This document shows positions 36,174-62,113 of a stretch of 64,000 nucleotides of DNA, piece by piece; within the stretch, counting starts at the first letter, position 1; each line of letters begins with the position of its first letter. A model generated the notes under the pieces. It had not been told where the DNA came from, did not search any database, and saw nothing but the letters and a program-made list of their open reading frames with translations. Made by a program: the position numbers and the translations under genes. Origin of the DNA: a virus (Duplodnaviria; Heunggongvirae; Uroviricota; Caudoviricetes); the IMG/VR virus record IMGVR_UViG_3300049003_000001, positions 13,660 to 77,659 of that record. One strand, written 5' to 3'.

Positions 36174-38033
36174 ATGTTTGATTTTGACGATTTCCTTTCG
36201 ATTGTAGAGGACGGCGATCTAGAAGAGATTCCCGTAGATATTGACACATTCATTCAGGACGAGCGCTACCTGAACCGTCCCGAGGTCACATTGTCGGACT
36301 ACCAGCGACAGTGTATCCTCGCGTCCACTCAGATTTACCGCAAGTCAACTCTGTTGCAGTTCCTCTCGGATAAGGAAGCCGAGAAGCGCTGGCAGCAGAC
36401 CTGCAATGAGGTAATCCTACAGCTAGGCAAGGGTTCGGGTAAGGACTTCATGTCCGCTATCTCGTGTGCCTACATGGTTTACCTATTGCTTTGTCTGAAA
36501 GACCCGGCCAGGTATTACAACAAGCCGTCCGGTGACACCATCGATATTCTGAACATCGCGCAGAACTCCGCACAGGCGTCTAACGTCTTCTTCGCCAACG
36601 TATCCCGATTGATCCAGAAGGCCCCGTGGTTCGTGGGCAGGTACGAGACCAAGGGCGGGTCGGCGGAACCGGCGAAGGCAAACCAGATCGACTTTGACAA
36701 GAATGTAACCCTGTACTCAGGCCACTCCGAGCGAGAGGCGTGGGAGGGCTATAACGTCATCATGGTTATCCTTGACGAGATTGACGGTTTTGCCAACGAC
36801 TCCGCATCCGGTGTTATGGGTAAGACCGCTGCCGGTATTTACGATATGTACCGCGCCTCCGTTGATTCCCGATTCGGTGAGTTTGGCAAGGTGCTCGCGC
36901 TGTCCTTCCCGCGTTACAAGGGCTCATGGATTCAGACGCGCTACGATCAGATCGTTGCCGCGAAGACCACGGTTGTCCGCACAGAAATCCTAAAGCTCGA
37001 CCCGGACCTCCCGGACGGCTTTGAGGGAAATGAAATCAAGATCGAGTGGGACGAGGACCACATCGAGCAGTACAAGTATCCGAAGATGTTCGCCTTGAAG
37101 CGTCCGACCTGGGACGTTAATCCACACAAGCACATCGAGGAATACGCTCGTGCATTCTTCGATAACTACATCGACACCCTCAGCCGTACCGCGTGTATGC
37201 CACCGGACGCCATCGACGCGTTCTTCAAGGACACGCAGAAGGTCAACGACGCATTCACTTCTACGAATATCGTGAGCAACGACGACGGCCGTTTTGATGA
37301 AAACCTTGCGCGACCGGACGACAGCAAGCTATACTTCGTCCATGTTGACCTCGCCCGCAAGCACGACCGCTGTGCGGTGGCGATGGGACACGTTGAGGGG
37401 TTCGTTCAGCGCAAAATTGGTCAGATTACTACCGAGCCTGCGCCGCTCATCAAGATCGATTCACTCAGGTATTGGATTCCTAAGAAGGACCAGCCGGTAG
37501 ACTTCACTGACGTTCGTCAGCATATTCTCGATTTGGCCCGCGCCGGGTACAATATCCGACTGGTCACGTTCGACCAGTGGGAGTCTGCTGACATGAGGAA
37601 ATACTTGGAGCAGGCCGGGCTAAGGACCGACAAGCTGTCGGTAGCAATCAAGCACTATACAGACTTCGCGGTTGCGGTGGCCGAGGGGCGTCTAGAGGGT
37701 CCGGACGAGCCACTATTGCGCGAAGAGCTTCTAGCGCTTAGAATTATGCAGAACGGAAAGATCGACCACATGCGCCAGGGATATAAGGACTTGTCCGACG
37801 CCACGTGTGGTGCTATCTTTAACGCAATTGCCCTGACGCCTCGTGAGCGAAACACCGAGGTCGAGGTCAGGACATATAAGGACGTAAAGAAGCAGGTCGT
37901 CAACGACACTGTGGCTAAGCAGCTTGCCGAGCAGGAAGCCCGCAAGGTAATCCGCGCCCCCTCGGCTAAGGCCACGGGTAAGCAGATGCCTAAGCAGCTA
38001 TTTGATTGGATTAACAGCGCCAAGGTGCTGTAA
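36174..38033 (+). CDS. terL: terminase large subunit
   Basis: Walker A QLGKGSGKD. Walker B VIMVILDEIDG. C-terminal RNaseH-like nuclease Asp cluster (VHVDLARKHDR...). Confidence 0.85.
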   Translation: MFDFDDFLSIVEDGDLEEIPVDIDTFIQDERYLNRPEVTLSDYQRQCILASTQIYRKSTLLQFLSDKEAEKRWQQTCNEVILQLGKGSGKDFMSAISCAYMVYLLLCLKDPARYYNKPSGDTIDILNIAQNSAQASNVFFANVSRLIQKAPWFVGRYETKGGSAEPAKANQIDFDKNVTLYSGHSEREAWEGYNVIMVILDEIDGFANDSASGVMGKTAAGIYDMYRASVDSRFGEFGKVLALSFPRYKGSWIQTRYDQIVAAKTTVVRTEILKLDPDLPDGFEGNEIKIEWDEDHIEQYKYPKMFALKRPTWDVNPHKHIEEYARAFFDNYIDTLSRTACMPPDAIDAFFKDTQKVNDAFTSTNIVSNDDGRFDENLARPDDSKLYFVHVDLARKHDRCAVAMGHVEGFVQRKIGQITTEPAPLIKIDSLRYWIPKKDQPVDFTDVRQHILDLARAGYNIRLVTFDQWESADMRKYLEQAGLRTDKLSVAIKHYTDFAVAVAEGRLEGPDEPLLREELLALRIMQNGKIDHMRQGYKDLSDATCGAIFNAIALTPRERNTEVEVRTYKDVKKQVVNDTVAKQLAEQEARKVIRAPSAKATGKQMPKQLFDWINSAKVL

Positions 38034-38091
38034 TTGACGATGACAAGGGAGAAATGTTAAAATGAGGAATACTTTTTACTAGGGGGAGACC

Positions 38092-38616
38092 ATGCAGCTA
38101 GAGTTGTCACGACAGGAAACGATTGAAATACTAACCATCCGCGACGGCTATACCTGCATGTTCCCGGACTGCACGGAGCCTTTGACGGATACCGGCAACC
38201 ACATGGTCACGCTTGACCATATTTACCCACAGGCGCTAGCGAAGCGCGACGGTTGGTCTATTGATAAGATCAACCATATCAACAACCTACAGTTGATGGG
38301 TAAGAACTGCAACGCTCGTAAGGGCCACCTAATTCCTGACGAAAACGGAAATTTGCCGTTGAAGGTCAAGGAGCCTCGCGCCCTAGCCAAGTCTGAGCGA
38401 CCAGTTATTTGCGAAACTTGCTACGCCGGAAGGTTGCTATTTCTCGGAGAGGAATGCTACGATTGCGGTAGCGGCCCGCAGCCAGCGATTGCCCCAAAGG
38501 CGACACAGAAGACGCCGAAGGAATGCACGCACGCGGGTCATGACCACTGTTGGATGTGCTACCTGGGATTTGTCGAGCGTTCATCCGCCCTGACCAACCT
38601 TGTGACTGGCAAATAG
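38092..38616 (+). CDS. HNH endonuclease with C-terminal zinc fingers
   Basis: DHIYPQA...N...NCNARKGH His-Me finger. TAG stop backed by an in-frame TAA 3 codons downstream. Confidence 0.7.
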   Translation: MQLELSRQETIEILTIRDGYTCMFPDCTEPLTDTGNHMVTLDHIYPQALAKRDGWSIDKINHINNLQLMGKNCNARKGHLIPDENGNLPLKVKEPRALAKSERPVICETCYAGRLLFLGEECYDCGSGPQPAIAPKATQKTPKECTHAGHDHCWMCYLGFVERSSALTNLVTGK

Positions 38617-38629
38617 ACAAAGGAATAAA

Positions 38630-39691
38630 GTGAACATCGCTGAATTGTTCGACAAGGAACTGTTTCAGCAGATGGTGGATGAGAAGATGGTGACCGTTCG
38701 AAATCACGACGGTCATCCTCTTCTCATTGCCAACTACTCAGACGCGGTTCAGTTCCGGAATTACTGGAACGAGGTCACGCTTAACTGCCGTGGTCTCATC
38801 TTTGATTGGGATGGGGAAATTCTCGCCCGTCCGTGGAAGAAGTTCTTCAATTTGGGGGACAGCAAGGCTCCGTGGATCGGCTTTGACGACCGCGTTGAGG
38901 TTACCGACAAGATGGATGGCAGTCTTGGCATTCTTTACATGTACGACGGCAAGCCGTCAATCTCCACTCGTGGCTCGTTCCACAGCACACAGGCCGGGTG
39001 GGCGACGAAGCACATTCGTAAGATTGAAGGACTCGATCTTCGATTTGCTCCGCATTTCACTTTCCTATTTGAGATTATCTACCCTACGAACCGAATTGTT
39101 GTTGATTACGGACGTTTCGAGGGTCTGGTTCTCCTGGGGGCGGTCGAGGTTGAGAACGGTCACGCAATTGGGCCGAATGAGGCAGCCGCTCTCCTGAATT
39201 GGCCGGGACTCACCACGGAGCTAATGCCGCATAAGTCGATCAACGATGTGCTGGCAGCGTCGGACCGTGAGAACACCGAGGGCTACGTCATCCGCCGGGG
39301 CGACGATATGGTCAAGTGGAAGCGTCCCGATTACATCAATCTCCACCGCCTTATCTCAAACCTTTCCGAGAAGTCGGTATGGAGCGGGCTAGAGGGCGGG
39401 AAGACGCCAGAGCAGTTGTGCGAAGACCTTCCGGACGAATTCCACGGATTCGTCAAGGAAACGTCATTCAAGCTAAAGCTGGCATTCCAGACCCGAATCA
39501 ACGAGGTGCAGCGGACATTCGGCAAGGTGATGTATGACCTGCCGGTTATGCCCCCGAGCCGCAAGGATTTCGCATGGGCCGTTCGGGACAATCCGGATAA
39601 GGCATACATGTTCGCTCTGCTAGACGACAAGGACATTGCTCCGATGGTCTGGCAGGAGCTAAAGCCAAAGGGCGAGCCAGAGGTCCGGTGA
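38630..39691 (+). CDS. RNA ligase (Rnl, KxDG nucleotidyltransferase)
   Basis: Motif I VTDKMDGSLG (KxDG). GTG start. Adjacent to Pnkp and the tRNA islands. Confidence 0.7.
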   Translation: MNIAELFDKELFQQMVDEKMVTVRNHDGHPLLIANYSDAVQFRNYWNEVTLNCRGLIFDWDGEILARPWKKFFNLGDSKAPWIGFDDRVEVTDKMDGSLGILYMYDGKPSISTRGSFHSTQAGWATKHIRKIEGLDLRFAPHFTFLFEIIYPTNRIVVDYGRFEGLVLLGAVEVENGHAIGPNEAAALLNWPGLTTELMPHKSINDVLAASDRENTEGYVIRRGDDMVKWKRPDYINLHRLISNLSEKSVWSGLEGGKTPEQLCEDLPDEFHGFVKETSFKLKLAFQTRINEVQRTFGKVMYDLPVMPPSRKDFAWAVRDNPDKAYMFALLDDKDIAPMVWQELKPKGEPEVR

Positions 39692-40647
39692 ATCAAATAC
39701 CGTACATGATGGCGAATACGCCAGAAGAGTTCTATAGAGTTAGGGATTTAGGTGTGAGTAATTTGCTGGCCCTCCGGGGCATCAGCGGGTCCGGGAAGAG
39801 CACCTACGCTCGTGAGCTAAAGGCTCAGGGCTGGGTGGTCGTATCCCGAGACGACATTAGAGAAACCATGTTCCGCGATTACCAGTCGGTAGACGAGGAC
39901 GTGGTAACCGTCGTGCAGGATGCCGCAATTCGGGCAGCCTTGAAGGCCGGACGCCGGGTCGTGGTTGATGACACGAATATCCGGGTGAAGTACCTAAAGC
40001 GATTCGTCAAGATTGCTCAGGACGCCGGGGCTCTGTTTGAGGTAAAGCAGTTCGATTGCGACGCTAACGAAGCAATCAAGCGAGTCGAGAAGCGTTTCAT
40101 GGACGGTGGCCGGAATGTCCCAGAAATGGTCATTCGCAAGCAGGCTCAGGGGCTAAAGTCTAGTAAGCTAGACTGGAATGAGCTTTACGACCAGGGTCCG
40201 ACCTTTGAGCCTTACGAGCGACCCGCAGGAAAGCCTTGGGCAATTCTGGTGGACGTGGATGGCACTCTGGCTCATAACGACGGCCACCGGGGCTGGTACG
40301 ATTACGAGAAGGTCTACGGCGATATCGTCAAGGAAGACATTGCGGAAATCGTCCGGACGTATGCCGAGGGCGGATATCATAAGGTAATCATCATGAGCGG
40401 CCGGGATGATGTATGCCAGGACGAGACTGCCAGGTGGTTGACGGATAACGGAATTCCGTTTGATGAAATCCACATGCGGAAGACCGGCGACCAGCGGAAG
40501 GATTCCATCGTTAAGATGGAGTTGTTCGATGAGTTTGTGCGGGACAACTACCGGGTGGAGTTCGTATTGGACGACCGTAATCAGGTTGTCGAGGCATGGC
40601 GTGGCATCGGTCTCACTTGCCTACAGGTTGCGCCGGGAGACTTCTAA
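39688..40647 (+). CDS. pnk: polynucleotide kinase-phosphatase (Pnkp)
   Basis: N-terminal P-loop GISGSGKST kinase. C-terminal HAD phosphatase motif VDVDGTL...MSGR...DD. Confidence 0.8.
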   Translation: MNQIPYMMANTPEEFYRVRDLGVSNLLALRGISGSGKSTYARELKAQGWVVVSRDDIRETMFRDYQSVDEDVVTVVQDAAIRAALKAGRRVVVDDTNIRVKYLKRFVKIAQDAGALFEVKQFDCDANEAIKRVEKRFMDGGRNVPEMVIRKQAQGLKSSKLDWNELYDQGPTFEPYERPAGKPWAILVDVDGTLAHNDGHRGWYDYEKVYGDIVKEDIAEIVRTYAEGGYHKVIIMSGRDDVCQDETARWLTDNGIPFDEIHMRKTGDQRKDSIVKMELFDEFVRDNYRVEFVLDDRNQVVEAWRGIGLTCLQVAPGDF

Positions 40648-40675
40648 GTCTTAGTCGCTCTGCTACTATCAACTC

Positions 40676-40936
40676 ATGCCGACAGATCATTGGGTGTTAG
40701 TAGCAGAGCGACGGGGCATCACTCCCCGGAAGCGCAAGCGCGAGGTCATCTACGCGACCGACGACGAATCTCGTGCTCGGCGCGACGCCGAGGACATGGG
40801 CAAGACCAATCGTCGCATGAGGTTCTATGTAATGCCCTACTCAGGTGCGGTTGAAGTGGCTCGTAGAGAGTTGAACGAGCTTGAAGCCGCATTAGAGTCG
40901 GCTAAGATCATGAAGGCCAAGATGCGGGGTGACTAA
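40676..40936 (+). CDS. hypothetical protein
   Basis: 86-aa ORF. Confidence 0.3.
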   Translation: MPTDHWVLVAERRGITPRKRKREVIYATDDESRARRDAEDMGKTNRRMRFYVMPYSGAVEVARRELNELEAALESAKIMKAKMRGD

Positions 40937-40939
40937 GGC

Positions 40940-41200
40940 GTGTGCTACGGTTGGCGATGTAATGCCACCGCCAGTCGATCCGAGGGGACGACGACCATGC
41001 AATTCGAATACGAGGCCATCCAGAAGGCACTGAACGGCCAGAAGGCGCACGGGACTGCCAAGGTCACGATCTATCTGACCAAGGGCGATTCGGCGTGGAA
41101 CCCGGCGAGTACCAAGAATCTGATTTACGGACCCGCCGAAGTCATGTACGAGGAAATGCCGGACGGCGCGATCAACGCCTACATCGACGGGGCTAGATAA
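40940..41200 (+). CDS. hypothetical protein
   Basis: 86-aa ORF. Confidence 0.3.
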   Translation: MCYGWRCNATASRSEGTTTMQFEYEAIQKALNGQKAHGTAKVTIYLTKGDSAWNPASTKNLIYGPAEVMYEEMPDGAINAYIDGAR

Positions 41201-41214
41201 TAGCCCGAAAGACC

Positions 41215-41285
41215 GCGCCTGTAGCTTAGCGGCAAAGCAGCCCTCTCTAAAAGGGTGTACGCCGGTTCGAATCCGGTCAGGCGCA
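41215..41285 (+). tRNA. tRNA with anticodon CUA (amber-suppressor-like, Sup)
   Basis: Acceptor GCGCCTG/CAGGCGC. D GCTT/AAGC. Anticodon stem GCCCT/AGGGT with loop CT-CTA-AA (U33, A37). T-arm GCCGG-TTCGAAT-CCGGT. 4-nt variable loop. Confidence 0.7.
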
Positions 41286-41728
41286 CGTGATTCAAGATAT
41301 CGTCATCCGTGGCACGTCCCGGTACATCTCTTACCGCCGTGCAGACGGGAGTCCGGCTTATGCCACTCTTTACAACGCCGACCTCTCGTGCGACCATGAC
41401 GTGCGAGCTAAGGAATTGTGGGAGGGCGGCGGGGTCACTTGCCGCAAATGCGAGGGGTGGTTCTGCTACTGATGATCTGGTATGACGCAGTGACGTACGA
41501 GCCGGTAGCGCCGGGTGAGGGCGAGGACGGTGGTCGCCCTTCTATGGAGTATTACTACTGCCCTCGGTGCAAGGTAGCACGGACGATGGTCGAGAAGATG
41601 CGGGCCATGATCTGTGAGGTCTGCCGGACTGTATTGCTGGTCCGATGAAGCAGCCAGAGGCATTCATCCTGTTTGCGGCGTTTTTAGTCCTCGTGATGGT
41701 GATGCTACATGCGGCGTAAAAGAAAAAT

Positions 41729-41758
41729 TTGACACGGCTGACGCGGGTCTGCTAGAAT
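41729..41758 (+). promoter_or_regulatory. promoter TTGACA-N18-TAGAAT for tRNA island 1
   Basis: gtctgcTAGAATagat matches the 16653 promoter almost exactly. Confidence 0.6.
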
Positions 41759-41831
41759 AGATTTATCAGGGAACGGGGAAGCCACACGCAAGCGCCTCAC
41801 GGTACGCAGCCTCTTTGAGCTTCCCCACACT

Positions 41832-41902
41832 GTCGATGTGGTTTAATGGTAGAACAAGACACTTCCAATGTTTTAGCGCCGGTTCGATTCCGGTCATCGG
41901 CT
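41832..41902 (+). tRNA. tRNA-Gly(UCC)
   Basis: Acceptor GTCGATG/CATCGGC. Anticodon loop CT-TCC-AA. T-loop TTCGATT. Confidence 0.75.
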
Positions 41903-41950
41903 CCGGGTTGGCAACTTACCTTATTGCCCTTTGGGGAGAAGTTGCACAAT

Positions 41951-42024
41951 GGTCCGTTGGTCTAGCGGTTAGGATTCCAGATTTTCACTCTGAGAGAACG
42001 TGGGTTCGAATCCCACACGGACTG
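41951..42024 (+). tRNA. tRNA-Glu(UUC)
   Basis: Acceptor GGTCCGT/ACGGACT. Loop TT-TTC-AC. T-arm GTGGG-TTCGAAT-CCCAC. One 27-43 mismatch and a 6-nt variable loop. Confidence 0.65.
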
Positions 42025-42088
42025 CGCTAGCCGGTAAAGAGGAATCTTTGCCGTAAACGAGGGGTGCGACTCGCAAAACGCACCACAT

Positions 42089-42159
42089 ATCCGCTAAGTG
42101 TTACGGTAGCACAGAAAGCTCCAACCTTTCTAGCGTGGGTTCGACTCCTACAGCGGGTG
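42089..42159 (+). tRNA. tRNA-Trp(CCA)
   Basis: Acceptor ATCCGCT/AGCGGGT with A1-U72. Anticodon stem GAAAG/CTTTC and loop CT-CCA-AC. Confidence 0.75.
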
Positions 42160-42226
42160 CAAACAGGTGACGACCTCCGGTTTAAGTCCGGCGTCTCCCC
42201 CGAGGGACGATAAGCCGAGGGACAAT

Positions 42227-42302
42227 CAGTCTGTAGGGCAGCCAGGCCAGCCCGCTTGATTTGGATTCAAGAGACTCGCAGGTTCGAATCCTGCCAGACT
42301 GA
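42227..42302 (+). tRNA. tRNA-Pro(UGG)
   Basis: Acceptor CAGTCTG/CAGACTG. Anticodon stem CTTGA/TCAAG and loop TT-TGG-AT. T-arm GCAGG-TTCGAAT-CCTGC. Confidence 0.7.
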
Positions 42303-42355
42303 CAGCCGCGATAGATGCAATCGGATAGGGTCCGACCAGAGCGAATCTATCACCT

Positions 42356-42429
42356 GGGGGATTAGCTTAATTGGTTAAAGCATTCGTCTGATACACGAAA
42401 GACTCTCGGTTCAAATCCGAGGTTCCCTA
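42356..42429 (+). tRNA. tRNA-Ile(GAU)
   Basis: Anticodon stem TTCGT/ACGAA and loop CT-GAT-AC. T-arm CTCGG-TTCAAAT-CCGAG. The acceptor stem has three G-U pairs. Confidence 0.6.
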
Positions 42430-42508
42430 CTCGCTCAGAAATGAGTCGAATCAATACCGGCCGGGTGCCAGCGGAGTTGATCGTCCGCCTAGAGAGTCCC
42501 GGCATCAT

Positions 42509-42581
42509 GGGTACTTACGTCAGCGGCCAGACTTCTTCCCTTACACGGAAGCGGACGGGGGTTCGAATCCCTCAGTACCTA
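42509..42581 (+). tRNA. tRNA-Val(UAC)
   Basis: Acceptor GGGTACT/AGTACCT. Anticodon stem CTTCC/GGAAG and loop CT-TAC-AC. Confidence 0.75.
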
Positions 42582-42592
42582 CGCAACATTTT

Positions 42593-42678
42593 GGAAGTGT
42601 GGCAATTGGCATAGCAAACTGTCTTGAAAACAGCTAAGGGTTGATAGCCCGATGCAGGTTCGACTCCTGTCGCTTCCG
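42593..42678 (+). tRNA. tRNA-Ser(UGA), long variable arm
   Basis: Acceptor GGAAGTG/CGCTTCC with G73, closely resembling the E. coli tRNA-Ser ends. Loop CT-TGA-AA. 86 nt. Confidence 0.8.
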
Positions 42679-42683
42679 CACCA

Positions 42684-42710
42684 CCCCTCGTCTCTGGCGA
42701 GGGGTTTTTC
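42684..42710 (+). terminator. rho-independent terminator closing tRNA island 1
   Basis: CCCCTCG-tctctgg-CGAGGGG followed by TTTTTC. Confidence 0.75.
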
Positions 42711-42731
42711 CATGTCTATAGGAGATTTAAG

Positions 42732-43010
42732 ATGGATTTTGCACAGGTGGCTGAGTCGGCGGGTAGCTGGGAAGACGCTCTTCACGAGTTTGACGTCAGG
42801 TGGGACGACGCCCTGGTCAATGAGATTTACGATCAGAGCCGTTGGTCTACGTTCACCCGCTACGTCTACCTCGTGGACGGCCGGTATTGGGAAATCATTG
42901 ACGAGCAGGGTTCCACGGAGTATCAGGAGGGCGGGGATTTCTCGTTCGAAATCAACGAAGTTACCCCGGTCACAGTCCAGAAGGTTGACTACGTACGCGT
43001 AGCCAAGTAA
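42732..43010 (+). CDS. hypothetical protein
   Basis: AGGAG RBS. 92 aa. Preferred over the overlapping alternative frame 42652..43002. Confidence 0.3.
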   Translation: MDFAQVAESAGSWEDALHEFDVRWDDALVNEIYDQSRWSTFTRYVYLVDGRYWEIIDEQGSTEYQEGGDFSFEINEVTPVTVQKVDYVRVAK

Positions 43011-44257: not shown

Positions 44258-44287
44258 TTGACAAGCTCGCCTAGGGTTTGTTACAAT
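44258..44287 (+). promoter_or_regulatory. promoter TTGACA-N18-TACAAT for tRNA island 2
   Basis: Same architecture as the other tRNA-island promoters. Confidence 0.55.
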
Positions 44288-44379
44288 ATTCCTGAGAGTT
44301 CTAGCTGATCGATTCTCCGTAGATGGTTTATGAGATGCTAGTCTCATGTGGTTCCCGGTCCACTCAAAACCGGGGTTAT

Positions 44380-44453
44380 GGCCCTGTGGAGTAACGGTTT
44401 ATCTCGTTTGCCTCTCACGCAAAAGAATGCGGGTTCGAATCCCGCCAGGGTCA
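44380..44453 (+). tRNA. tRNA-Glu(CUC)
   Basis: Acceptor GGCCCTG/CAGGGTC. Anticodon stem TTTGC/GCAAA and loop CT-CTC-AC. T-arm GCGGG-TTCGAAT-CCCGC. Confidence 0.7.
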
Positions 44454-44497
44454 CCAACCTAGGGAAAGCCTAGGAGCGCCCGGACCCGAGGCCGAAT

Positions 44498-44568
44498 ATC
44501 GGGCATAGTGGATGTAGTTTAGAGGTAAAATACTTGCTTGCCATGCAAGTGTCCGGGGTTCGATTCCC
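44498..44568 (+). tRNA. tRNA-Gly(GCC)
   Basis: Anticodon stem CTTGC/GCAAG and loop TT-GCC-AT. T-arm CGGGG-TTCGATT-CCCCG. Confidence 0.7.
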
Positions 44569-44570
44569 CG

Positions 44571-44642
44571 TATCCGCACCGGGTATGATCCGATTGGTCG
44601 AGGAAGTGGTTTGTGATACCACTACAAGCGGGTTCGATTCCC
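44571..44642 (+). tRNA. tRNA-His(GUG)
   Basis: Acceptor GGGTATG/CATACCC. Anticodon stem GTGGT/ACCAC and loop TT-GTG-AT. It lies 2 nt after tRNA-Gly. The G-1/C73 His features are not obvious. Confidence 0.6.
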
Positions 44643-44684
44643 GTCATACCCTCGTTAACGTTTCCTCCAATTTAAGGTAAACAC

Positions 44685-44915: not shown

Positions 44916-45237
44916 TGCGCTTATTGCCGTTGACGCCAATGCGAATGACGCTTGGAAGAATGCCGCAGACCAAATCATCATCAATCTAGCCAAGCGAAAC
45001 CGAGTCTTCACCTCAGACGATATTTGGGAAGGCTTGTCTCTCGCTGGCGTCCACACGGCAGAGCACCGGGCGATGGGGCCTCGCATTATTGCGGCGGTCA
45101 AGGCCGGTGTCATCGAGTACCAGACGTGTGACCACTGCGAAACGACAAAGGTCGTCACGAAGTCTCGCCGCGAGGAATCCCACGGCAAGTTCACCACTGT
45201 TTACTCTTCTATTATTTATGGGCAGGTTATCGCATGA
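44905..45237 (+). CDS. hypothetical protein
   Basis: About 110 aa, with its start overlapping the upstream stop. Confidence 0.3.
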   Translation: MLFDALIAVDANANDAWKNAADQIIINLAKRNRVFTSDDIWEGLSLAGVHTAEHRAMGPRIIAAVKAGVIEYQTCDHCETTKVVTKSRREESHGKFTTVYSSIIYGQVIA

Positions 45238-45848
45238 CCAGGGCACTTATTGTCGTAGACGCACAGCGTGATTTCTGCGAAGGCGGGGCTCTCCCGGTGG
45301 AGGGTGGCAACGCGGTCTGTATCCGTATTGCCGACGCCATCCGTAGTCTCGGCAAGGGACAGAAGAAGCTCTACCAGTACATCGTCGGAACCAAGGATTT
45401 CCACATTCCCGGCGACAGCAACGGTGGGCACTTCTCCGATAACCCGGACTACGTGACCACCTGGCCCGAGCACTGTGTGCAGGGCACCGAGGGGTCGATG
45501 TTCCACCCGGAAATTGCTGACGCGGCCTGGGCGGGGTTTGACGCGGTGTTCTACAAGGGTGCTGGCCGACCAGACTATTCAGGTTTCCACGGGAAGGCTC
45601 CGTCCCTGTATCCGGATGGAGATATCTACCTTCTCGATTGGTTGCAGCGCCGCAACGTCACGGATTTGGACATTGTTGGTCTAGCCACGGACTACTGTGT
45701 CAAGGAGACCGCGATGGACGCAATTCAGAATGGATTCAACGTCCGAATCCCTCAGGCGCTCACGGCAGCAGTCGGCGGGCAGGAGGCTCGTGACCTTTGG
45801 ATCAAGACCGTTTACGCGGCTCAGGGGTCGAGCTTGCACCTCAACTGA
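45234..45848 (+). CDS. isochorismatase-family hydrolase (nicotinamidase/PncA-like)
   Basis: LIVVDAQRDF (catalytic Asp), a Lys, and GLATDYCV (catalytic Cys) give a PncA-type triad. 204 aa. Confidence 0.6.
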   Translation: MTRALIVVDAQRDFCEGGALPVEGGNAVCIRIADAIRSLGKGQKKLYQYIVGTKDFHIPGDSNGGHFSDNPDYVTTWPEHCVQGTEGSMFHPEIADAAWAGFDAVFYKGAGRPDYSGFHGKAPSLYPDGDIYLLDWLQRRNVTDLDIVGLATDYCVKETAMDAIQNGFNVRIPQALTAAVGGQEARDLWIKTVYAAQGSSLHLN

Positions 45849-46790: not shown

Positions 46791-46863
46791 GTCTCTTTAG
46801 CTCAATTGGTAGAGCGGTTGATTGAAGCTCAACAGGTTGGCGGTTCGATTCCGTCAGGGGACA
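46791..46863 (+). tRNA. tRNA-Phe(GAA)
   Basis: Acceptor GTCTCTT/AGGGGAC. D GCTC/GAGC. Anticodon stem GTTGA/TCAAC and loop TT-GAA-GC. Confidence 0.8.
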
Positions 46864-46873
46864 CAGTAGATTA

Positions 46874-46941: not shown

Positions 46942-47748
46942 TTGGGTAAGTTCCTAGGCGGCCTTTTCGCCTTCTTTGCTTTTATTCTTGCAATTCTTCT
47001 TTTCATGTCGAGCACCACAATCGGTGCGCGGTCGGTCGGTATTCAGACCAGCTTTGGCAAGTACGTGAACACGCTGCCGTCAGGTCACCATTGGGCCAGC
47101 CCGTTCTCGTCTGTCGAGGAATTCAGCACTCTCACGCAGAACCTTCACCTCAATGGTGGAAATGGTGACGACGAGGGTCCGAAGACGCCGGTTGCCTTCA
47201 AGGGCGGGGCCTCGGGCAACGTCGATGCCACGATTCGTTGGAGGATCAGCGACGACGGCGCACAGAAGCTTTGGAGGGACTACAAGACCTTCGCCAACGT
47301 GCAGAACAACCTCGTCCGTGCCGATGCTCAGAACTCGCTCCGGATTGAGTTTTCCAATTTCACTCCGGTGGACGCTCGTGACGGCAATAACCTGAACACG
47401 ATTATGACGAACGTGCAGAAGTCGCTGGCCGGAAAGCTAAAGAGCTACGGCGTGTCGGTTGACTCCATTCAGATCACGAACGTGGAGCTTGGTCGGCAGG
47501 CTCAGTCGTCCATTGACCGAATTGTCGAGGCTAACGCCAACGTGCAGCGCGCGGAGGCTGAGCAGCAGAAGGCCACCATCGAGGCGCAGACTGCACAGAT
47601 TCGTCAGACCACGCAGACTCCGGAGACCTTGCAGCGCTATTGCCTAGAGGTCGTCAACGCCTGGGACGTGAGCAAGAATGGTCCGCTTCCGGCGACCTTC
47701 AACTGTGGGCTGTCTGAGAACAGCGGATCGGTTATCGTAGGTAAGTAA
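46942..47748 (+). CDS. SPFH/band-7 (HflK/C, prohibitin-like) membrane protein
   Basis: N-terminal TM helix. The central SPFH-like region and coiled-coil IQITNVELGRQAQSSIDRIVEANANVQRAEAEQQKATIEAQ are typical of the band-7 family. Confidence 0.55.
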   Translation: MGKFLGGLFAFFAFILAILLFMSSTTIGARSVGIQTSFGKYVNTLPSGHHWASPFSSVEEFSTLTQNLHLNGGNGDDEGPKTPVAFKGGASGNVDATIRWRISDDGAQKLWRDYKTFANVQNNLVRADAQNSLRIEFSNFTPVDARDGNNLNTIMTNVQKSLAGKLKSYGVSVDSIQITNVELGRQAQSSIDRIVEANANVQRAEAEQQKATIEAQTAQIRQTTQTPETLQRYCLEVVNAWDVSKNGPLPATFNCGLSENSGSVIVGK

Positions 47749-47987
47749 TGAGTAGCTTTAGCGAATCCTTGCTGGACGCTATTCTTGGTTATGTCCAGAA
47801 GCATGTTGACGAGGGCGCTCAGCGAATCGTTTCCTACGAAGAGGAAGAGCGCGCGGACGGTTATTGCGAGACCTGTTACTATGAGTGGACTATCTTTACC
47901 ATCACCTACCTCGGTGGGGATGGATTGCAGAGAGTCTACGAATACTACGGAGACTTCGCAGAATTCGTTCGTGAGTTGACAGACTGA
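47748..47987 (+). CDS. hypothetical protein
   Basis: 79-aa ORF. Confidence 0.3.
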   Translation: MSSFSESLLDAILGYVQKHVDEGAQRIVSYEEEERADGYCETCYYEWTIFTITYLGGDGLQRVYEYYGDFAEFVRELTD

Positions 47988-48005
47988 CCTCGGTTTTGTT
48001 AGAAT
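47976..48005 (+). promoter_or_regulatory. promoter TTGACA-N18-TAGAAT for tRNA island 3
   Basis: ttgtTAGAATagat is the conserved context. Confidence 0.55.
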
Positions 48006-48062
48006 AGATGAGCCGCCGCAAGTACAGGGAGTTTAATCCTTGTGGCTACGGCGGTTACATCT

Positions 48063-48135
48063 GGCCCTGTAGCTCAGTGGATAGAGCGTTTGACTACGAA
48101 TCAAAAGGTCGCAGGTTCGAATCCTGCTAGGGTCA
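48063..48135 (+). tRNA. tRNA-Arg(ACG)
   Basis: Anticodon stem TTTGA/TCAAA and loop CT-ACG-AA. T-arm GCAGG-TTCGAAT-CCTGC. Confidence 0.8.
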
Positions 48136-48436
48136 CTTGCATTAAATAATGCTTTTGTTAGAATTACGCTATGAATACATTCATGGTAAGCGTAATGCTA
48201 CAGGTTGAGGTAGAAGCGTTTGATGAGTCAGACGCGCGTGATGCGGTAATTGACTGCTTCGGAGAAGGTGACTTCTGCGGCGTCGAGGTCAAGGACTGTG
48301 AAGTAACCGATTTTGAATTGCTAGGCTGATGACCGTCACGATCTGGTGCTCCGGATGCTCTGCGGAGCCTGCGGTAGAGTTGTTCGAAATCGAATGGAAC
48401 AACGAATGGGTTTCTTTTCCCGTTGGGGAAGAGTGC

Positions 48437-48465
48437 TTGACACGCGCCCAGGAGAATGCTAGAAT
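48437..48465 (+). promoter_or_regulatory. promoter TTGACA-N17-TAGAAT
   Basis: aatgcTAGAATtg is the conserved context. Confidence 0.55.
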
Positions 48466-48481
48466 TGAAGAATAACAGAAT

Positions 48482-48554
48482 GGCCCTATAGCTCAGCGGT
48501 TAGAGCGTTCGCCTGTCACGCGAAAGGTCGCCGGTTCAAATCCGGTTGGGGTCG
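48482..48554 (+). tRNA. tRNA-Asp(GUC)
   Basis: Anticodon stem TTCGC/GCGAA and loop CT-GTC-AC. G73. Confidence 0.8.
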
Positions 48555-48711
48555 CTTTCTCGGCCAATTCACTACTCGCCATAGTGAACAAGCTCGGGAG
48601 AAATGAGAAAGAGGCTGGATGCGACAGCCGCTACGTTCGTAGCACAAACAGTGAAGATCAGAATTCCGGTGACGGTCTACTCCGGGGCGCTGAAAACCTT
48701 TCTCACATAAT

Positions 48712-48783
48712 GGGTGCGTAGCTCAGAGGCAGAGCAGTTGACTCTTAATCAACGGGTCGGGATTTCGAAATTCCCCGCACCTA
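48712..48783 (+). tRNA. tRNA-Lys(CUU), atypical T-arm
   Basis: Anticodon stem GTTGA/TCAAC and loop CT-CTT-AA. The T-arm is GGGAT-TTCGAAA-TTCCC with a 53·61 T·T mismatch and a near-palindromic GATTTCGAAATTC. Confidence 0.65.
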
Positions 48784-48881
48784 CTCATGGTTAATGTAAG
48801 TGTCCAAAGTACACGGGCATACTGCATTAGCTTCCGTGTACGGATTGGCACGGCGTCTACCTCGGACGATATCGGGGCCAC

Positions 48882-48953
48882 GGGCCTCTAGCTCAGAGGA
48901 AGAGCAGTGGACTTTTAATCCACGGGTCGAGATTTCGAAATTCTCGGGGCCTA
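48882..48953 (+). tRNA. tRNA-Lys(UUU), atypical T-arm
   Basis: Anticodon stem GTGGA/TCCAC and loop CT-TTT-AA. Its T-arm GAGAT-TTCGAAA-TTCTC is paralogous to the 48712 tRNA. Confidence 0.65.
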
Positions 48954-49034
48954 CGTTGCGTTTTTCAGGCGCGCAACTGGTGGAGGACAATCATTTGTCC
49001 CTAGGTTTGCAGATTGTCCTTAACAATCTGTCAT

Positions 49035-49117
49035 GTGTGAGTTGAGCAGGTGGTGCGCTCAGCGGGCTGTAACCCCGTCGTCTACGGACATTGAAGGTTC
49101 AATTCCTTTCTCACACA
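49035..49117 (+). tRNA. tRNA-Tyr(GUA), long variable arm
   Basis: Acceptor GTGTGAG/CTCACAC. Anticodon stem GCGGG/CCCGT and loop CT-GTA-AC. T-arm GAAGG-TTCAATT-CCTTT. Confidence 0.75.
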
Positions 49118-49120
49118 CTT

Positions 49121-49188
49121 GCGGGATAGTGAAATCGGTATCATAGAGGGCTCATAATCCTCAGTTGGCGTTCGAATCGCCTCCCGCC
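49121..49188 (+). tRNA. tRNA-like, anticodon CAU (Met/Ile2?), atypical or degenerate
   Basis: Anticodon stem GAGGG/TCCTC with loop CT-CAT-AA. 6-bp acceptor GCGGGA/TCCCGC. However, the variable-loop-plus-T-stem region is 2 nt too short for a canonical fold. Confidence 0.4.
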
Positions 49189-49204
49189 CCCATTTAGTAC
49201 ACCG

Positions 49205-49566: not shown

Positions 49567-49965
49567 ATGAATCTCCGTCAAGGGTTTAGAGCCCTCGCCA
49601 ATAACGGTCTGGCTATCGGATCAGTCCTACTTTGCACAAATATGATCGGTGCCTGGCTGTTCATGCTGGCTGAGCACCACTCTTGGCGGGATTCATTCTA
49701 TTGGGCGTGGATTACTTCTCTTTCAATCGGTTATGGGGATATTAGTCCCGAGACGTGGCCGGGAAAGATGATTGCCATGTGTCTCGGAGCTTTCGTCCTA
49801 TACGTGATGACGCCGCTGGTTGTCGGAAAATTTGTCATGGCAGCCCTTGCGAACCAGCACGAATTCACGCATACTGAACAAGAAGAAATCAAGGGGGCTC
49901 TCGCGGGAATCACCGAGAAGTTGACCCTCATGCAGCACGATATCAATATGATGGAGATGAAGTGA
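49567..49965 (+). CDS. minimal K+ channel-like protein (2TM/P-loop, Kcv/KcsA-like)
   Basis: TSLSIGYGD matches the K+ selectivity filter TxxTxGYGD. It is flanked by hydrophobic helices (LAIGSVLLCTNMIGAWLFMLA and MIAMCLGAFVLYVMTPLVVGKFV) with a pore-helix FYWAWIT. 132 aa. Confidence 0.65.
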   Translation: MNLRQGFRALANNGLAIGSVLLCTNMIGAWLFMLAEHHSWRDSFYWAWITSLSIGYGDISPETWPGKMIAMCLGAFVLYVMTPLVVGKFVMAALANQHEFTHTEQEEIKGALAGITEKLTLMQHDINMMEMK

Positions 49966-50474: not shown

Positions 50475-50683
50475 TGAATGTTGAATTGCAGACCATCGAT
50501 GGTCAGTTCTTTAGCTCTGATCCGTTCGACAACGAGTACGACGTGAATCTGACCAGCGTGGCCGACGAGCTACGCGGACTATTCACTAGCTGGCGGGAGA
50601 TGGATTACCTCTCGCTGGTCATCGGCGGGCGGGTCCGGTATTTCAACCCGGCCAACGTGCTGTGGGCGGAAATCGTTAACTGA
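50474..50683 (+). CDS. hypothetical protein
   Basis: 69-aa ORF. Confidence 0.3.
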   Translation: MNVELQTIDGQFFSSDPFDNEYDVNLTSVADELRGLFTSWREMDYLSLVIGGRVRYFNPANVLWAEIVN

Positions 50684-51000
50684 TGTTCAAGCATGTTGAC
50701 ACGACCCGTCCGTATCCCGCAACCGAAATGACGACGGCGAAGTGGAAGCAGGTTCCGTGTTTTTGGGTGGATATCAGTGACCTGATTGCTACCCAAGAGG
50801 GCGTGAATTTTCAGCCGCTTATCGTCATCGACCGGGCAATGCGGTACACCTCGCACAGTGGTGATATTCACCCGCACGTCGTGTCCTGGCGGGGTAACCT
50901 ATATCTGGAAGACGGCCATCACCGCACGGTCGGCAGACTGTTTGATGGAAAGAAGACAGTCTTCGCCCGAGTGTTGACCATCGTAGACCACGGAGAGTAG
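50683..51000 (+). CDS. ParB-like nuclease domain protein
   Basis: LYLEDGHHRTVG matches the ParB/Srx DGHHR motif. 105 aa. Confidence 0.5.
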   Translation: MFKHVDTTRPYPATEMTTAKWKQVPCFWVDISDLIATQEGVNFQPLIVIDRAMRYTSHSGDIHPHVVSWRGNLYLEDGHHRTVGRLFDGKKTVFARVLTIVDHGE

Positions 51001-51322: not shown

Positions 51323-51394
51323 GGTTCCGTAGCGTAGGGGAAACGCGGTGGTCTTCTAAACCACTAAACGTTGGTTCGAATCCAACCGGAATCA
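51323..51394 (+). tRNA. tRNA-Arg(UCU)
   Basis: D GCGT/ACGC. Anticodon stem GTGGT/ACCAC and loop CT-TCT-AA. T-arm GTTGG-TTCGAAT-CCAAC. Confidence 0.8.
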
Positions 51395-51487
51395 CAAAGC
51401 GCAAACAGCCACAGCGGGTGACGGGTCATAACCGTAAATGAATGCGCCAGGAGTTAGGGTCGCCATGCCAAAACAAGACTCCGATTT

Positions 51488-51559
51488 ACTCTCGTAGTTC
51501 AGTGGAAGAATAGTCGCCTCCTAAGCGATTGGTCGCTGGTTCGAATCCAGTCGAGAGTA
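51488..51559 (+). tRNA. tRNA-Arg(CCU)
   Basis: Acceptor ACTCTCG/CGAGAGT. Anticodon stem GTCGC/GCGAT and loop CT-CCT-AA. Confidence 0.75.
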
Positions 51560-51742
51560 CGTGTACGTTCCAATCGCCTTTGCCGAGGCGGTTGGCGGGG
51601 ACTAAGAGGGACGGCAATCCTGACTGGTCAATGTGGGGTGCGGCTTGAAACCAAGCCTCTACGTACGTAAGCCGGGGGGTCAGGTGACCGGATAACACTC
51701 ATAACGTTGTCTAGCTCAGTTCGATACTGAGTCACGGTACAA

Positions 51743-51813
51743 GGCACTATGCGAGAAAGGTCATCGACTAGTCTGCAAAACTAGGAATGCGGGTTCGAAT
51801 CCCGTTAGTGCTT
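51743..51813 (+). tRNA. tRNA-Cys(GCA)
   Basis: Anticodon stem CTAGT/ACTAG and loop CT-GCA-AA. T-arm GCGGG-TTCGAAT-CCCGT. Confidence 0.75.
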
Positions 51814-51814
51814 C

Positions 51815-52386: not shown

Positions 52387-52719
52387 GGGCCTGACTTGGT
52401 TTCGACTCTTAGTGGACATTGTTAGACGCAGCCGGTCTTGGGTAGAGACCTTAAACAACTCAAAATAATAAATGCAGACTACGACATTGTAGCTGAGGCA
52501 GAGGCCATCACCCGTGAGGCCGCTGCCGCCCTTGTTTCTGCCTGATCTAAACCCTCAGGATTGACAAGCAGGGAACAGTGGACGCCCTGATAACCAAACG
52601 TCCCTAGCAACACCCTAGCACTGCCGTGAGAAATGCAAGACCCGCCGGGGATACGGATGGCTGTAATTCGGATTTCAAGATAAGCTAGGAACACGCGGGT
52701 TCGACTCCCGCCAGGTCCA
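52387..52719 (+). ncRNA. ssrA: tmRNA (SsrA)
   Basis: The 5' end GGGCCTGACTTGGTTTCGAC and 3' end GCGGGTTCGACTCCCGCCAGGTCCA parallel the E. coli tmRNA termini. The acceptor GGGCCTG/CAGGTCC has the G3·U70 Ala identity pair. A candidate tag frame GCA GAC TAC ... GCC TGA reads ADYDIVAEAEAITREAAAALVSA*. Confidence 0.7.
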
Positions 52720-52750
52720 CGTGAGGATTATTGAAAAGGGAATCCTAGAG

Positions 52751-55822: not shown

Positions 55823-55907
55823 GGAAGCGTCGCATAGAGGCTTATTGCGGTCGGTTGCTAACCGACTGAGGGTCACACCTCCGCAGGTTCGAATCCTGTC
55901 GCTTCCG
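55823..55907 (+). tRNA. tRNA-Ser(GCU), long variable arm
   Basis: Acceptor GGAAGCG/CGCTTCC (perfect) with G73. Anticodon stem GTCGG/CCGAC and loop TT-GCT-AA. It is preceded by a TATAAT at 55811-55816. Confidence 0.8.
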
Positions 55908-55953
55908 CTTTAGAGTGTCTGCTTTTAAACATTCATGATGTTACAATTACGTC

Positions 55954-57165: not shown

Positions 57166-57238
57166 TGGCCCTGTATTCCAACGGTAGAGAAAGTGGATTC
57201 AAAACCCATACAGTGTCGGTTCGAATCCGACTAGGGCT
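57166..57238 (+). tRNA. tRNA with anticodon CAA (Leu anticodon on a class-I short-variable-arm body)
   Basis: Acceptor GGCCCTG/TAGGGCT. Anticodon arm GTGGA-TT-CAA-AA-CCCAT with an A·C at 31-39. T-arm GTCGG-TTCGAAT-CCGAC. A73. Confidence 0.55.
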
Positions 57239-57348
57239 ACGTGGATAGTTGCAACTGTCCAAAGAAGTGTTGGGGTGCGATACCCAATCGAGTAAACAAC
57301 ACTTTCCAATGAAAGGTGCAGTCATCCGGGGACTGCATGCTTTCACAT

Positions 57349-57429
57349 GCCCGTGTGGTGGAATGGCAGACACGCGTGCCTTAGGAGCACGTACCGCAAG
57401 GTGTGCAGGTTCAAGTCCTGTCACGGGTA
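57349..57429 (+). tRNA. tRNA-Leu(UAG), long variable arm
   Basis: Acceptor GCCCGTG/CACGGGT. Anticodon stem CGTGC/GCACG and loop CT-TAG-GA. A 13-nt variable arm. T-arm GCAGG-TTCAAGT-CCTGT. Confidence 0.75.
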
Positions 57430-57430
57430 C

Positions 57431-57847
57431 ATGGCGTATACCTCGAAAGAGCAATACGAAAGAGTTTACTACGGTAGAAAGAACGGTTATCTACAGTATC
57501 TAGGTGGCAAGTGTGCAGTCTGTGGGTCGTCCGACGATCTAGAGTTTGACCACATTGACTGGCGGACTAAAGACTTTGGTATTATGAGAAAGTGGTCCGC
57601 CGCAGATCAGGCCCAGGTGTATAGAGAGCTTGACAAGTGTCAGTTGCTTTGTGTTGAGCACCACGCCGAGAAGACCAGCAAGGACATTAGCCAGCAGAGG
57701 TCGGAGCAAATCAAGCCGATCAATCACGGCAAGATGTACGCATGGCAAAAGCGCAAGTGTCGCTGTGACATTTGCTCCGAGGCGCGTCAGGCATTCTATG
57801 ACGCCAGAAACGAAAGGCGCAGAAATGGCAATGTTGTTTCGCGTTGA
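57431..57847 (+). CDS. HNH endonuclease
   Basis: CAVCG...EFDHIDW...N...LLCVEHHAEKT. Its ATG is 2 nt after tRNA-Leu. Confidence 0.65.
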   Translation: MAYTSKEQYERVYYGRKNGYLQYLGGKCAVCGSSDDLEFDHIDWRTKDFGIMRKWSAADQAQVYRELDKCQLLCVEHHAEKTSKDISQQRSEQIKPINHGKMYAWQKRKCRCDICSEARQAFYDARNERRRNGNVVSR

Positions 57848-58190
57848 GAACCCGTTCACTAAGGCCGGGCTCTGGTACAGCGAGACCGGGAAGTACACCG
57901 GAATCGTGACCAAGATGGAGAATTACCGAAACAAAGACCTTCCGATGGCCCACGAGGACTGCATGGCCGGTGGCTGGCACTCCGCTGTGGATAACTTGGA
58001 CGACTTGAAGCAGTGGTTCAACTTTGAGGAAATGACGGAGCTAGAGCGAACGGGCTACGGCATTTACGCATTCAACGTGGACAGCTATCGGATTGGCCGG
58101 TCGGAGACGGGCATCGAGCACGCAGTGTTTCAGCGAGACGCGGTGGTCGGTGGCAAGTACCTCCGGTTGGACCGAGGGGTTCTACTCTAG
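57825..58190 (+). CDS. hypothetical protein
   Basis: 121-aa ORF whose start overlaps the end of the HNH gene. Confidence 0.3.
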   Translation: MAMLFRVENPFTKAGLWYSETGKYTGIVTKMENYRNKDLPMAHEDCMAGGWHSAVDNLDDLKQWFNFEEMTELERTGYGIYAFNVDSYRIGRSETGIEHAVFQRDAVVGGKYLRLDRGVLL

Positions 58191-58269
58191 TTTTACAGCC
58201 GGGTTATCCGTAAACCTGGCTTTGCTTCCCAAAGGAAAACGGTTCTCAACAAAATACCGGGAAGCACCT

Positions 58270-58343: not shown

Positions 58344-58347
58344 CCTA

Positions 58348-61832: not shown

Positions 61833-61861
61833 TGTTATGATAAATGAGCAACGTCGCATTA

Positions 61862-62109: not shown

Positions 62110-62113
62110 TCGC

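Follow-up and report, generated by a model that had tools for sequence, protein, structure and literature searches.

A T4-type RNA ligase and polynucleotide kinase-phosphatase pair beside the tRNA islands of an uncultured phage related to phages of actinobacteria

The stretch of caudoviricete DNA analysed here (IMG/VR record IMGVR_UViG_3300049003_000001, positions 13,660 to 77,659) is 64,000 nucleotides long and is called the window below, with coordinates counted from its first letter. It encodes, on one strand and directly next to each other, an ATP-dependent RNA ligase and a polynucleotide kinase-phosphatase (Pnkp), followed by a long series of tRNA genes. Both enzymes belong to families of the phage T4 tRNA repair system, both have intact active sites, and the pair is linked to tRNA regions in relatives of this phage, while the tRNA islands have promoters of their own. 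We consider it probable that the two proteins form a T4-style "heal and seal" pair that mends tRNAs after a host ribotoxin has severed their anticodon loops.

Results

The repair genes and their products

38630–39691, plus strand: Rnl1-type ATP-dependent RNA ligase, GTG start, 353 amino acids, AGGA 5 nt upstream of the start
39692–39753, plus strand: ligase–Pnkp junction of 62 nt, which is untranslated or else encodes the N-terminal extension of the long Pnkp open reading frame (ORF)
39754–40647 (297 amino acids) or 39688–40647 (319 amino acids), plus strand: T4-type polynucleotide 5'-kinase/3'-phosphatase (Pnkp), GTG starts

The initial annotation of this DNA had placed both ORFs here and named three motifs, all of which were found: ligase motif I, KMDGS (residues 94–98, nt 38909–38923, with K94 as the nucleophile), and, numbered in the 319-residue Pnkp ORF, the P-loop GISGSGKST (residues 31–39, nt 39778–39804) and the DxDxT motif DVDGTL (residues 189–194, nt 40252–40269). 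The ligase start codon is well supported by the AGGA upstream of it. The ligase scores 51.9 bits against Pfam PF09511 (RNA_lig_T4_1), past the gathering score of 28.3, and 64.1 bits against the NCBIfam equivalog TIGR02308 (T4 RnlA), below the cut-off of 242.25. Because it passes the first threshold and misses the second, we class it on these profiles as a member of the Rnl1 family, yet not as an equivalog of T4 RnlA. A match to PHROG 562 covers nearly its full length (E 3e-69), and among sequences of solved structures phmmer matches it to T4 Rnl1 entries only (E 1.6e-15, residues 42–247), with 23–27% identity to T4 Rnl1. An AlphaFold model of the ligase, built with 46 homologues as input, has a pLDDT of 93.8; its top match in Foldseek is T4 Rnl1 (E 1e-16), followed by fungal Trl1 ligase domains, Rnl3, Rnl5 and Rnl2. 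On the choice between Rnl1 and Rnl2 posed at the outset, we read the protein as a ligase of the Rnl1 family.

Alignment pairs the active-site residues of the window ligase with those of T4 Rnl1 as follows.

N-terminal subdomain, window = T4: R54 = R54, K71 = K75, F73 = F77
Motif I and beyond, window = T4: K94 = K99, D96 = D101, G97 = G102, E148 = E159
Remaining positions, window = T4: E217 = E227, G218 = G228, K229 = K240, K231 = K242

All 11 mapped residues are invariant in 46 of 46 homologues; the T4 set used for this mapping is one that we take to be essential. Motif I (KxDG, which holds the lysine nucleophile) and motifs III, IV and V of covalent nucleotidyltransferases are all present, as are the residues typical of the Rnl1 N-terminal subdomain (T4 R54, K75 and F76/F77), whose Arg and Lys contact the ATP γ-phosphate; R54, K75 and F76 are documented for T4 Rnl1 (PMC6379707). 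The clades of RNA ligases are defined by the domains that each appends to the core, and in T4 Rnl1 it is the C-terminal domain that confers tRNA specificity (PMC6379707). This domain lies out of reach of sequence methods in the window ligase: phmmer alignment ends at residue 247, and hhalign of the ligase family against the single T4 Rnl1 sequence ends at residue 259. When the C-terminal domain was modelled on its own and used for a fold search, T4 Rnl1 was still the best structural match, though the similarity is weak. The domain is probably homologous to that of Rnl1 and very divergent, and tRNA specificity of the ligase is plausible.

Pnkp is a single polypeptide of about 300 residues with the kinase first and the HAD phosphatase second, as in T4. 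On the 319-residue ORF, Pfam finds AAA_33 at residues 26–156 (E 3.4e-23) and HAD_PNKP at residues 183–319 (E 1.5e-49). The protein matches PHROG 505 (polynucleotide kinase; E 1.2e-94) and aligns end to end with Pnkp1 of 4xrp, its best solved match (E 2e-44), and with T4 Pnk, 1ltq (E 1.7e-37, residues 5–301). Its residues pair with those of T4 Pnkp thus.

Kinase, window = T4: K37 = K15, S38 = S16, D55 = D35, R58 = R38, D95 = D85, R136 = R126
Phosphatase, window = T4: D189 = D165, D191 = D167, R201 = R176, S237 = S211, R239 = R213
Phosphatase, continued, window = T4: D272 = D254, K276 = K258, D295 = D277, D296 = D278

Every T4 catalytic residue checked in Pnkp is conserved, both those of the C-terminal DxDxT acylphosphatase and, including the general base and the arginines that bind phosphate, those of the P-loop 5'-OH polynucleotide kinase, whose presence the initial annotation had made decisive for its assignment. 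Catalytic roles have been described for K15, D35, R126, D165, D167, S211, K258 and D278 of the T4 enzyme (PMC3592404).

The long Pnkp ORF begins with a GTG that overlaps the ligase stop as GTGA (39688–39691), and the two genes had accordingly been described as translationally coupled. The 22 N-terminal residues read from GTG 39688 are missing in all three aligned Pnkp homologues, however, and GTG 39754, which has AGGGA 7 nt upstream, coincides exactly with the start codon of the closest homologue. As homologues begin at this position, it is doubtful that the two genes are translationally coupled; the likelier product, on this comparison, is a protein of 297 residues that starts after a gap of 62 nt. 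The two genes are probably co-transcribed.

The tRNA islands are separate transcription units next to the pair

ARAGORN predicts 31 tRNAs and one tmRNA, all on the plus strand, between 41215 and 62111 (20,897 nt), in 12 groups of one to seven genes, and Rfam supports 32 of the 32 at the gathering score; the estimate of about 31 tRNAs and a tmRNA over some 21 kb thus held. The set spans all 20 amino acids plus one anticodon CUA. From the Pnkp stop codon to the first tRNA there are 567 nt, with two small ORFs between.

38034–38063, plus strand: promoter-like site, TTGACG-N15-TGT-TAAAAT, which follows the terminase stop and precedes the HNH gene
41215–41286, plus strand: amber-reading tRNA(CUA), first after the repair pair, Rfam 66.5 bits, without a consensus promoter of its own upstream
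41729–42705, plus strand: tRNA island 1 as a whole unit, with promoter 41729–41758, seven tRNAs at 41832–42679 (in order Gly, Glu, Trp, Pro, Ile, Val, Ser) and terminator 42683–42705
44258–44653, plus strand: tRNA island 2 (Glu, Gly, His) with promoter 44258–44287
46791–46864, plus strand: tRNA-Phe
47976–49192, plus strand: promoters 47976–48005 and 48437–48465 with tRNAs Arg, Asp, Lys(CUU), Lys(UUU), Tyr and Met
51323–51814, plus strand: tRNAs Arg(UCU), Arg(CCU) and Cys
52387–52722, plus strand: tmRNA with the non-canonical tag ADYDIVAEAEAITREAAAALVSA, Rfam RF00023, 69.5 bits
53938–54460, plus strand: tRNAs Asn, Thr, Ala and Gln
55823–55908, plus strand: tRNA-Ser
57167–58345, plus strand: three tRNAs Leu
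61853–62111, plus strand: two tRNAs Thr

Six sites in the window match the extended-minus-10 promoter consensus TTGA-N15-18-TGnTAnAAT, against 0.09 expected by chance (16653–16682, 38034–38063, 41729–41758, 44258–44287, 47976–48005 and 48437–48465). Five of them have a perfect TTGACA, and four (41729, 44258, 47976 and 48437) sit 17–93 nt upstream of tRNA groups. Because the islands have these near-consensus promoters, and the first island also a terminator of its own, they are separate from the repair genes and therefore autonomous transcription units, which are probably strongly expressed. The idea that the islands form one unit with the repair genes was not borne out: the pair is therefore a neighbour of the tRNA islands and not the head of a shared operon. 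The description of the pair as heading the tRNA stretch is right for position in the window and in the metagenomic contigs L016 and L020, and fails for L017 and L018, where three tRNAs precede the ligase, and for Streptomyces phages, where the pair lies mid-region. The site at 38034–38063 is a candidate promoter that could drive the HNH, ligase and Pnkp genes, and tRNA(CUA) at 41215 may be co-transcribed with the repair pair.

The amber-reading tRNA, which is well formed, also stands next to the repair pair in each of the closer relatives examined (L016 12725–12797, L017 8859–8930, L018 3177–3248, L020 5693–5764). TAG is the rarest stop codon in the window (5 of 68 naive ORFs), and the standard bacterial code leaves long ORFs intact, which makes genome-wide amber recoding unlikely. 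We considered amber readthrough for a naive ORF at 42652–43002, which ends in TAG and continues in frame into the next ORF; the idea was dropped, since this ORF overlaps tRNA-Ser and the terminator and the gene call in L020 is in another frame (42732–43010).

The tmRNA tag, ADYDIVAEAEAITREAAAALVSA, is atypical and acidic, and resembles the unusual tag reported for mycobacteriophage Bxz1. The tmRNA of the partial relative L015 (2005–2400) has the tag ADYDVVAEAEAILRSAALATV, and neither tag ends in the canonical ALAA. Two of the tRNA-Leu calls (57167–57240 and 58270–58345, anticodons CAA and UAG) are merely 74–76 nt long, and their amino-acid identity is uncertain because they are without the long variable arm typical of bacterial tRNA-Leu.

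The pair and its link to tRNA regions are conserved, but the cassette varies

Megablast of positions 38000–41300 against 50,697 phage records gave no match, and relatives are found at the protein level only. Among sequenced phages, the Stanwilliamsviridae that infect Streptomyces come closest (ligase about 48%, Pnkp about 49% and terminase about 56% identical), and the annotations of more than 100 Streptomyces phages include this module. In members of cluster BE such as BoomerJR, Gilson, Annadreamy and Coruscant, an annotated RNA ligase and polynucleotide kinase lie on one strand, as here, inside a region with dozens of tRNAs and a tmRNA. There the pair is mid-region rather than ahead of the tRNAs and is split by one or two small ORFs (two in BoomerJR), whereas the window genes are directly adjacent. 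The BoomerJR region also holds a Band-7 protein, an acetyltransferase and a WhiB protein, gene kinds that occur in the window too. The Stanwilliamsviridae differ from the window in GC content and tRNA complement, and the Streptomyces-phage tmRNA tags are canonical (ANS...YALAA) where that of the window is atypical.

Metagenomic relatives are closer. In contig L020 the ligase and Pnkp are identical to those of the window and stand in the same gene order. In others, whose ligases are 63–72% identical, the sequence of terminase, ligase, Pnkp, tRNA(CUA) and tRNA islands is preserved, but the cassette is expanded. RlaP (PF10127), a nucleotidyltransferase that acts on RNA 3' ends and has been connected with RNA repair (PMC12776372, PMC7824862), lies between Rnl1 and Pnkp in L016 and in L017–L019 (at 11040–11546 in L016 and 10451–10975 in L017). 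In L021 and L023 the order is Rnl1, a second ligase of about 207 residues (PF09414), RlaP and Pnkp (inserted genes at 7306–7929 and 8130–8633 in L021, and at 7831–8457 and 8823–9323 in L023), and L022 has the same four genes with Pnkp interrupted by the contig end. At the place of the 62-nt junction of the window, five relatives thus have RlaP and three of the five a second ligase as well, and this marks the locus as an RNA repair cassette. A tblastn search of the 64-kb window with the relatives' proteins found neither RlaP nor the second ligase (best E for RlaP 0.07, chance level). Cassette content thus varies between close relatives, and the window and L020 carry the minimal, two-enzyme, T4-like version. 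What does not vary is an Rnl gene followed by a Pnkp gene on the same strand beside tRNA islands, in metagenomic relatives and Streptomyces phages alike, so the proposed link between the pair and the tRNA islands is borne out beyond this phage.

We considered whether the junction is the scar of an RlaP deletion. It has no DNA similarity to the relatives past the 3' end of the ligase gene. A junction peptide, EEFYRVRDL, weakly resembles EEIYRVARL near the C-terminus of L016 RlaP, but L016 is the only one of five comparators to stand out, and 20 of 2000 shuffles equal its score; we treat the scar as unproven.

The presence of a WhiB-family regulator (62359–62664) suggests an actinobacterial host, as do the Streptomyces-phage relatives and an Lsr2 gene in L016; these sequences point to an uncultured actinobacterial phage distantly related to the Stanwilliamsviridae.

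A counterpart of the pair is common in actinobacterial chromosomes

A scan of bacteria with one genome per species returned 391 relatives of the ligase, and the counts given here are from the best 80 (loci L024–L103). Flanking genes were located by tblastn with RF1, PrmC, Rho and ThrB; naive ORF calling is unreliable at high GC. These best 80 loci are mostly from Actinomycetota, including Dactylosporangium, Catellatospora, Actinoplanes, Micromonospora, Streptomyces and Streptosporangium. A Pnkp homologue directly follows the ligase (at about 6001–7040 of the locus) in 73 of them, and in 52, mostly Micromonosporaceae, the pair is flanked by prfA/prmC and rho/thrB. The chromosomal pairs of Micromonosporaceae, Streptomyces and Streptosporangiaceae share families, order and adjacency with the window pair and are about 37–43% identical to its proteins, but are cellular and without a tRNA array. 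Our literature search for a chromosomal, prfA/rho-linked Rnl1–Pnkp operon returned nothing, and as far as we could find its function is uncharacterised. By this distribution the adjacent Rnl1–Pnkp pair is thus an old, largely cellular module of Actinomycetota and no invention of phages.

Other genes among the tRNA islands

An orphan VapB-like antitoxin gene (50683–51000; Pfam PF23719, E 3e-24) lies amid the tRNA islands with no PIN/VapC partner nearby and is kept in L016 (18219–18530). Its product has no match among solved structures or PHROGs; as a decoy antitoxin it could act on VapC tRNases of the host. An isochorismatase-family protein (45234–45848), nearest to nicotinamidase/pyrazinamidase (NCBIfam NF008623, E 4e-28, below the cut-off), is conserved in L016, L018 and L020 and might act in NAD salvage. 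Between the islands there are also genes for a small potassium-channel-like protein (Ion_trans_2, 49567–49965) and a Band-7/SPFH protein (46942–47748), besides the WhiB-family gene.

Discussion

The closest functional model for the window pair is tRNA repair in T4, where Rnl1 (gene 63, rnlA) and Pnkp (pseT) counter PrrC. Both families and their domain architectures are the same in the window, and its catalytic residues that were checked match those of T4, save for one lysine-to-arginine exchange in the ligase (T4 K119). T4 has its genes on one strand in the order rnlA-alc-pseT.3-pseT.2-pseT.1-pseT, so that ligase-then-Pnkp order is common to both phages, but the two T4 genes are 1.4 kb and four genes apart while those of the window are adjacent. 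T4 carries tRNA genes of its own, 8 of them, fewer than the 31 tRNAs that accompany the tmRNA here. The inferred actinobacterial host, unlike that of T4, has no known PrrC-like partner. Another known system is Pnkp1-Rnl-Hen1 of Capnocytophaga gingivalis (4xrp; PMC4411300), the source of the best solved match to the window Pnkp. The window pair has no adjacent Hen1, since Pfam and PHROG find no methyltransferase domain in either flanking ORF.

If the window pair works as the T4 enzymes do, Pnkp would remove a 2',3'-cyclic phosphate or 3' phosphate to leave a 3'-OH and would phosphorylate the 5'-OH to a 5'-phosphate; the ligase would adenylylate itself at K94 (lysyl-AMP), hand the AMP on to the 5'-phosphate and join the ends again. 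The likeliest substrates would be host or phage tRNAs with anticodon loops that a ribotoxin of the host has cut to leave cyclic-phosphate ends. As the region also supplies tRNAs for 20 amino acids, a tmRNA and the orphan VapB-like antitoxin, these components together with the repair pair may sustain translation when the host turns against its own translation machinery.

That healing is needed implies that the breaks come from metal-independent, transesterifying RNases. PIN (VapC), Toprim (PARIS AriB) and retron-Eco7 effectors are metal-dependent and should, like HNH-type effectors, leave a 3'-OH and a 5'-phosphate, with no need for Pnkp. Among the nucleases initially put forward as targets, VapC, PARIS and retron-Eco7 are therefore a poor chemical fit, while the metal-independent PrrC and RloC suit the pair. 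PrrC and RloC are the classical makers of such ends (PMC2610378), and MazF leaves cyclic-phosphate ends as well; MazF-mt9 of M. tuberculosis, which cuts tRNA-Lys(UUU) in the anticodon, is an actinobacterial precedent for a repairable lesion (PMC7180214). A repair module that complements phage tRNAs has been proposed for jumbo phages (PMC7824862) and actinobacteriophages (PMC7302621), and counter-defence is a plausible role for this one.

Several points weigh against this reading. In it the RNA that is repaired, the nuclease of the host and the advantage that the phage gains are all inferred. The sole catalytic difference of the ligase from T4 Rnl1, R114 in place of K119, is invariant in its clade. 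With promoters of their own, the tRNA islands may be near the repair genes merely because both occupy a shared region of accessory genes. Codon compensation could account for the tRNA set with no nuclease involved. Finally, because the adjacent pair occurs in so many actinobacterial loci, most of them flanked by housekeeping genes, the module may be a general cellular RNA repair system rather than a dedicated anti-defence device.

The strongest competitor, to which we give a sizeable though minority chance, takes both enzymes as annotated but has the tRNA set serve codon compensation, so that "replace" and "repair" would be functionally independent. The window has about 55% GC and a GC3 of 0.67, while the relatives infect Streptomyces, whose genomes are far more GC-rich at about 72%. 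As codon compensation in a GC-rich host would have it, A/T-ending codons that this phage uses often are read by many of the tRNAs: CTA makes up 22% of Leu codons, ATT 50% of Ile, GGA 23% of Gly, GAA 36% of Glu and GTA 16% of Val. For the tRNA set taken by itself, codon compensation does about equally well as counter-defence. Yet the set reaches all 20 amino acids and includes tRNAs for scarcely used codons, such as AGA (4% of Arg) and AAA (5% of Lys, for which tRNA-Lys(UUU) is nevertheless encoded), and for CAG, AAG and GAC, which need no compensation. The presence of tRNA-Lys(UUU) and of the orphan VapB-like antitoxin fits tRNA replacement or protection. A published analysis of tRNA-rich mycobacteriophages disfavours pure codon compensation and puts forward an anti-nuclease hypothesis for phage tRNAs (PMC10264068), and compensation and replacement are compatible with each other.

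General RNA repair is a serious rival to a dedicated anti-defence function because the pair is an old, largely cellular module, although we hold it rather unlikely as the explanation of this locus. It would have the enzymes mend any phage or host RNA (mRNA, rRNA, tmRNA) cut by MazF- or RelE-type RNases, with the proximity to tRNA genes incidental. The housekeeping-linked operon in many actinobacterial chromosomes, the separate transcription of the tRNA islands and the weak similarity of the very ligase domain that confers tRNA specificity in T4 Rnl1 are all in its favour, and MazF and RelE do leave cyclic-phosphate ends on mRNA and rRNA (PMC7180214). Against this, T4 Rnl1 remains the best structural match of that domain, and through rearrangements the pair has kept to the tRNA region, inside it or beside it, across lineages whose repair proteins are only about 48% identical. 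Some relatives moreover have RlaP, with which over-damaged tRNA regains its aminoacylation in vitro (PMC12776372). Least probable by far is a role in DNA metabolism or virion assembly, in which Pnkp would heal 3'-phosphate and 5'-OH ends of DNA in replication, recombination or packaging and the ligase promote tail-fibre attachment like T4 gp63 in its second role. The genes for a large terminase (36174–38033) and an HNH endonuclease (38092–38616) precede the repair genes; T4 Pnkp also acts on DNA ends, and gp63 has a tail-fibre attachment activity, with which PHROG 562 is annotated. Pnkp homologues occur, too, in many Mycobacterium phages (303 records), while Mycobacterium is outside the ten best-represented groups of ligase matches. 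In the Streptomyces-phage relatives, however, the pair is about 11 kb from the terminase and within the tRNA region, so the linkage is to tRNAs and not to packaging genes. The ligase also always travels with Pnkp, and in relatives with RlaP and sometimes a second RNA ligase, and its active site is strictly conserved.

Tentatively, and with a low expectation that it holds as a whole, the locus can also be seen as a snapshot of a fast-evolving, modular "translation-protection island" in an undescribed lineage of actinobacterial phages. Its Rnl1–Pnkp core could have been captured from, or exchanged with, the conserved operon found between prfA and rho in actinobacteria. RlaP and the second ligase could be gained and lost according to host nucleases, with RlaP needed solely against nucleotide-excising nucleases like RloC. 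The full tRNA set under strong host-type promoters, the VapB-like decoy antitoxin and the conserved amber-reading tRNA could likewise be countermeasures.

The arrangement itself is already known. The same pair is found in the tRNA/tmRNA region of Streptomyces phages and the concept has been published, so the window is a divergent example and introduces no new principle. Burroughs and Aravind reportedly described extended RNA repair cassettes (Rnl1 or Rnl2, PNK-HAD and RlaP) in 2016. Iyer et al. 2021 report such cassettes, Rnl1 or Rnl2 with PNK-HAD and RlaP, in jumbo phages and bacteria (PMC7824862). They share with the window the concept of an ATP-dependent RNA ligase and a kinase-HAD healing enzyme that complement phage tRNAs against attack on translation, and RlaP cassettes of the jumbo-phage type are present in the window's relatives but not in the window.

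The added interest of this locus is modest: it shows in its most reduced form a cassette whose content differs between close relatives, and it led to a widespread chromosomal counterpart, the Rnl1–Pnkp pair beside prfA and rho, which may merit separate study. If the two enzymes do repair tRNA as proposed, the T4 repair strategy and the strategy of replacing tRNAs stand side by side in an actinobacterial phage. The relatives that differ by RlaP and the second ligase would then be a natural series for matching the added enzymes to host nucleases, and such a series would help to test whether the large tRNA sets of phages are anti-defence tools rather than aids to codon usage.

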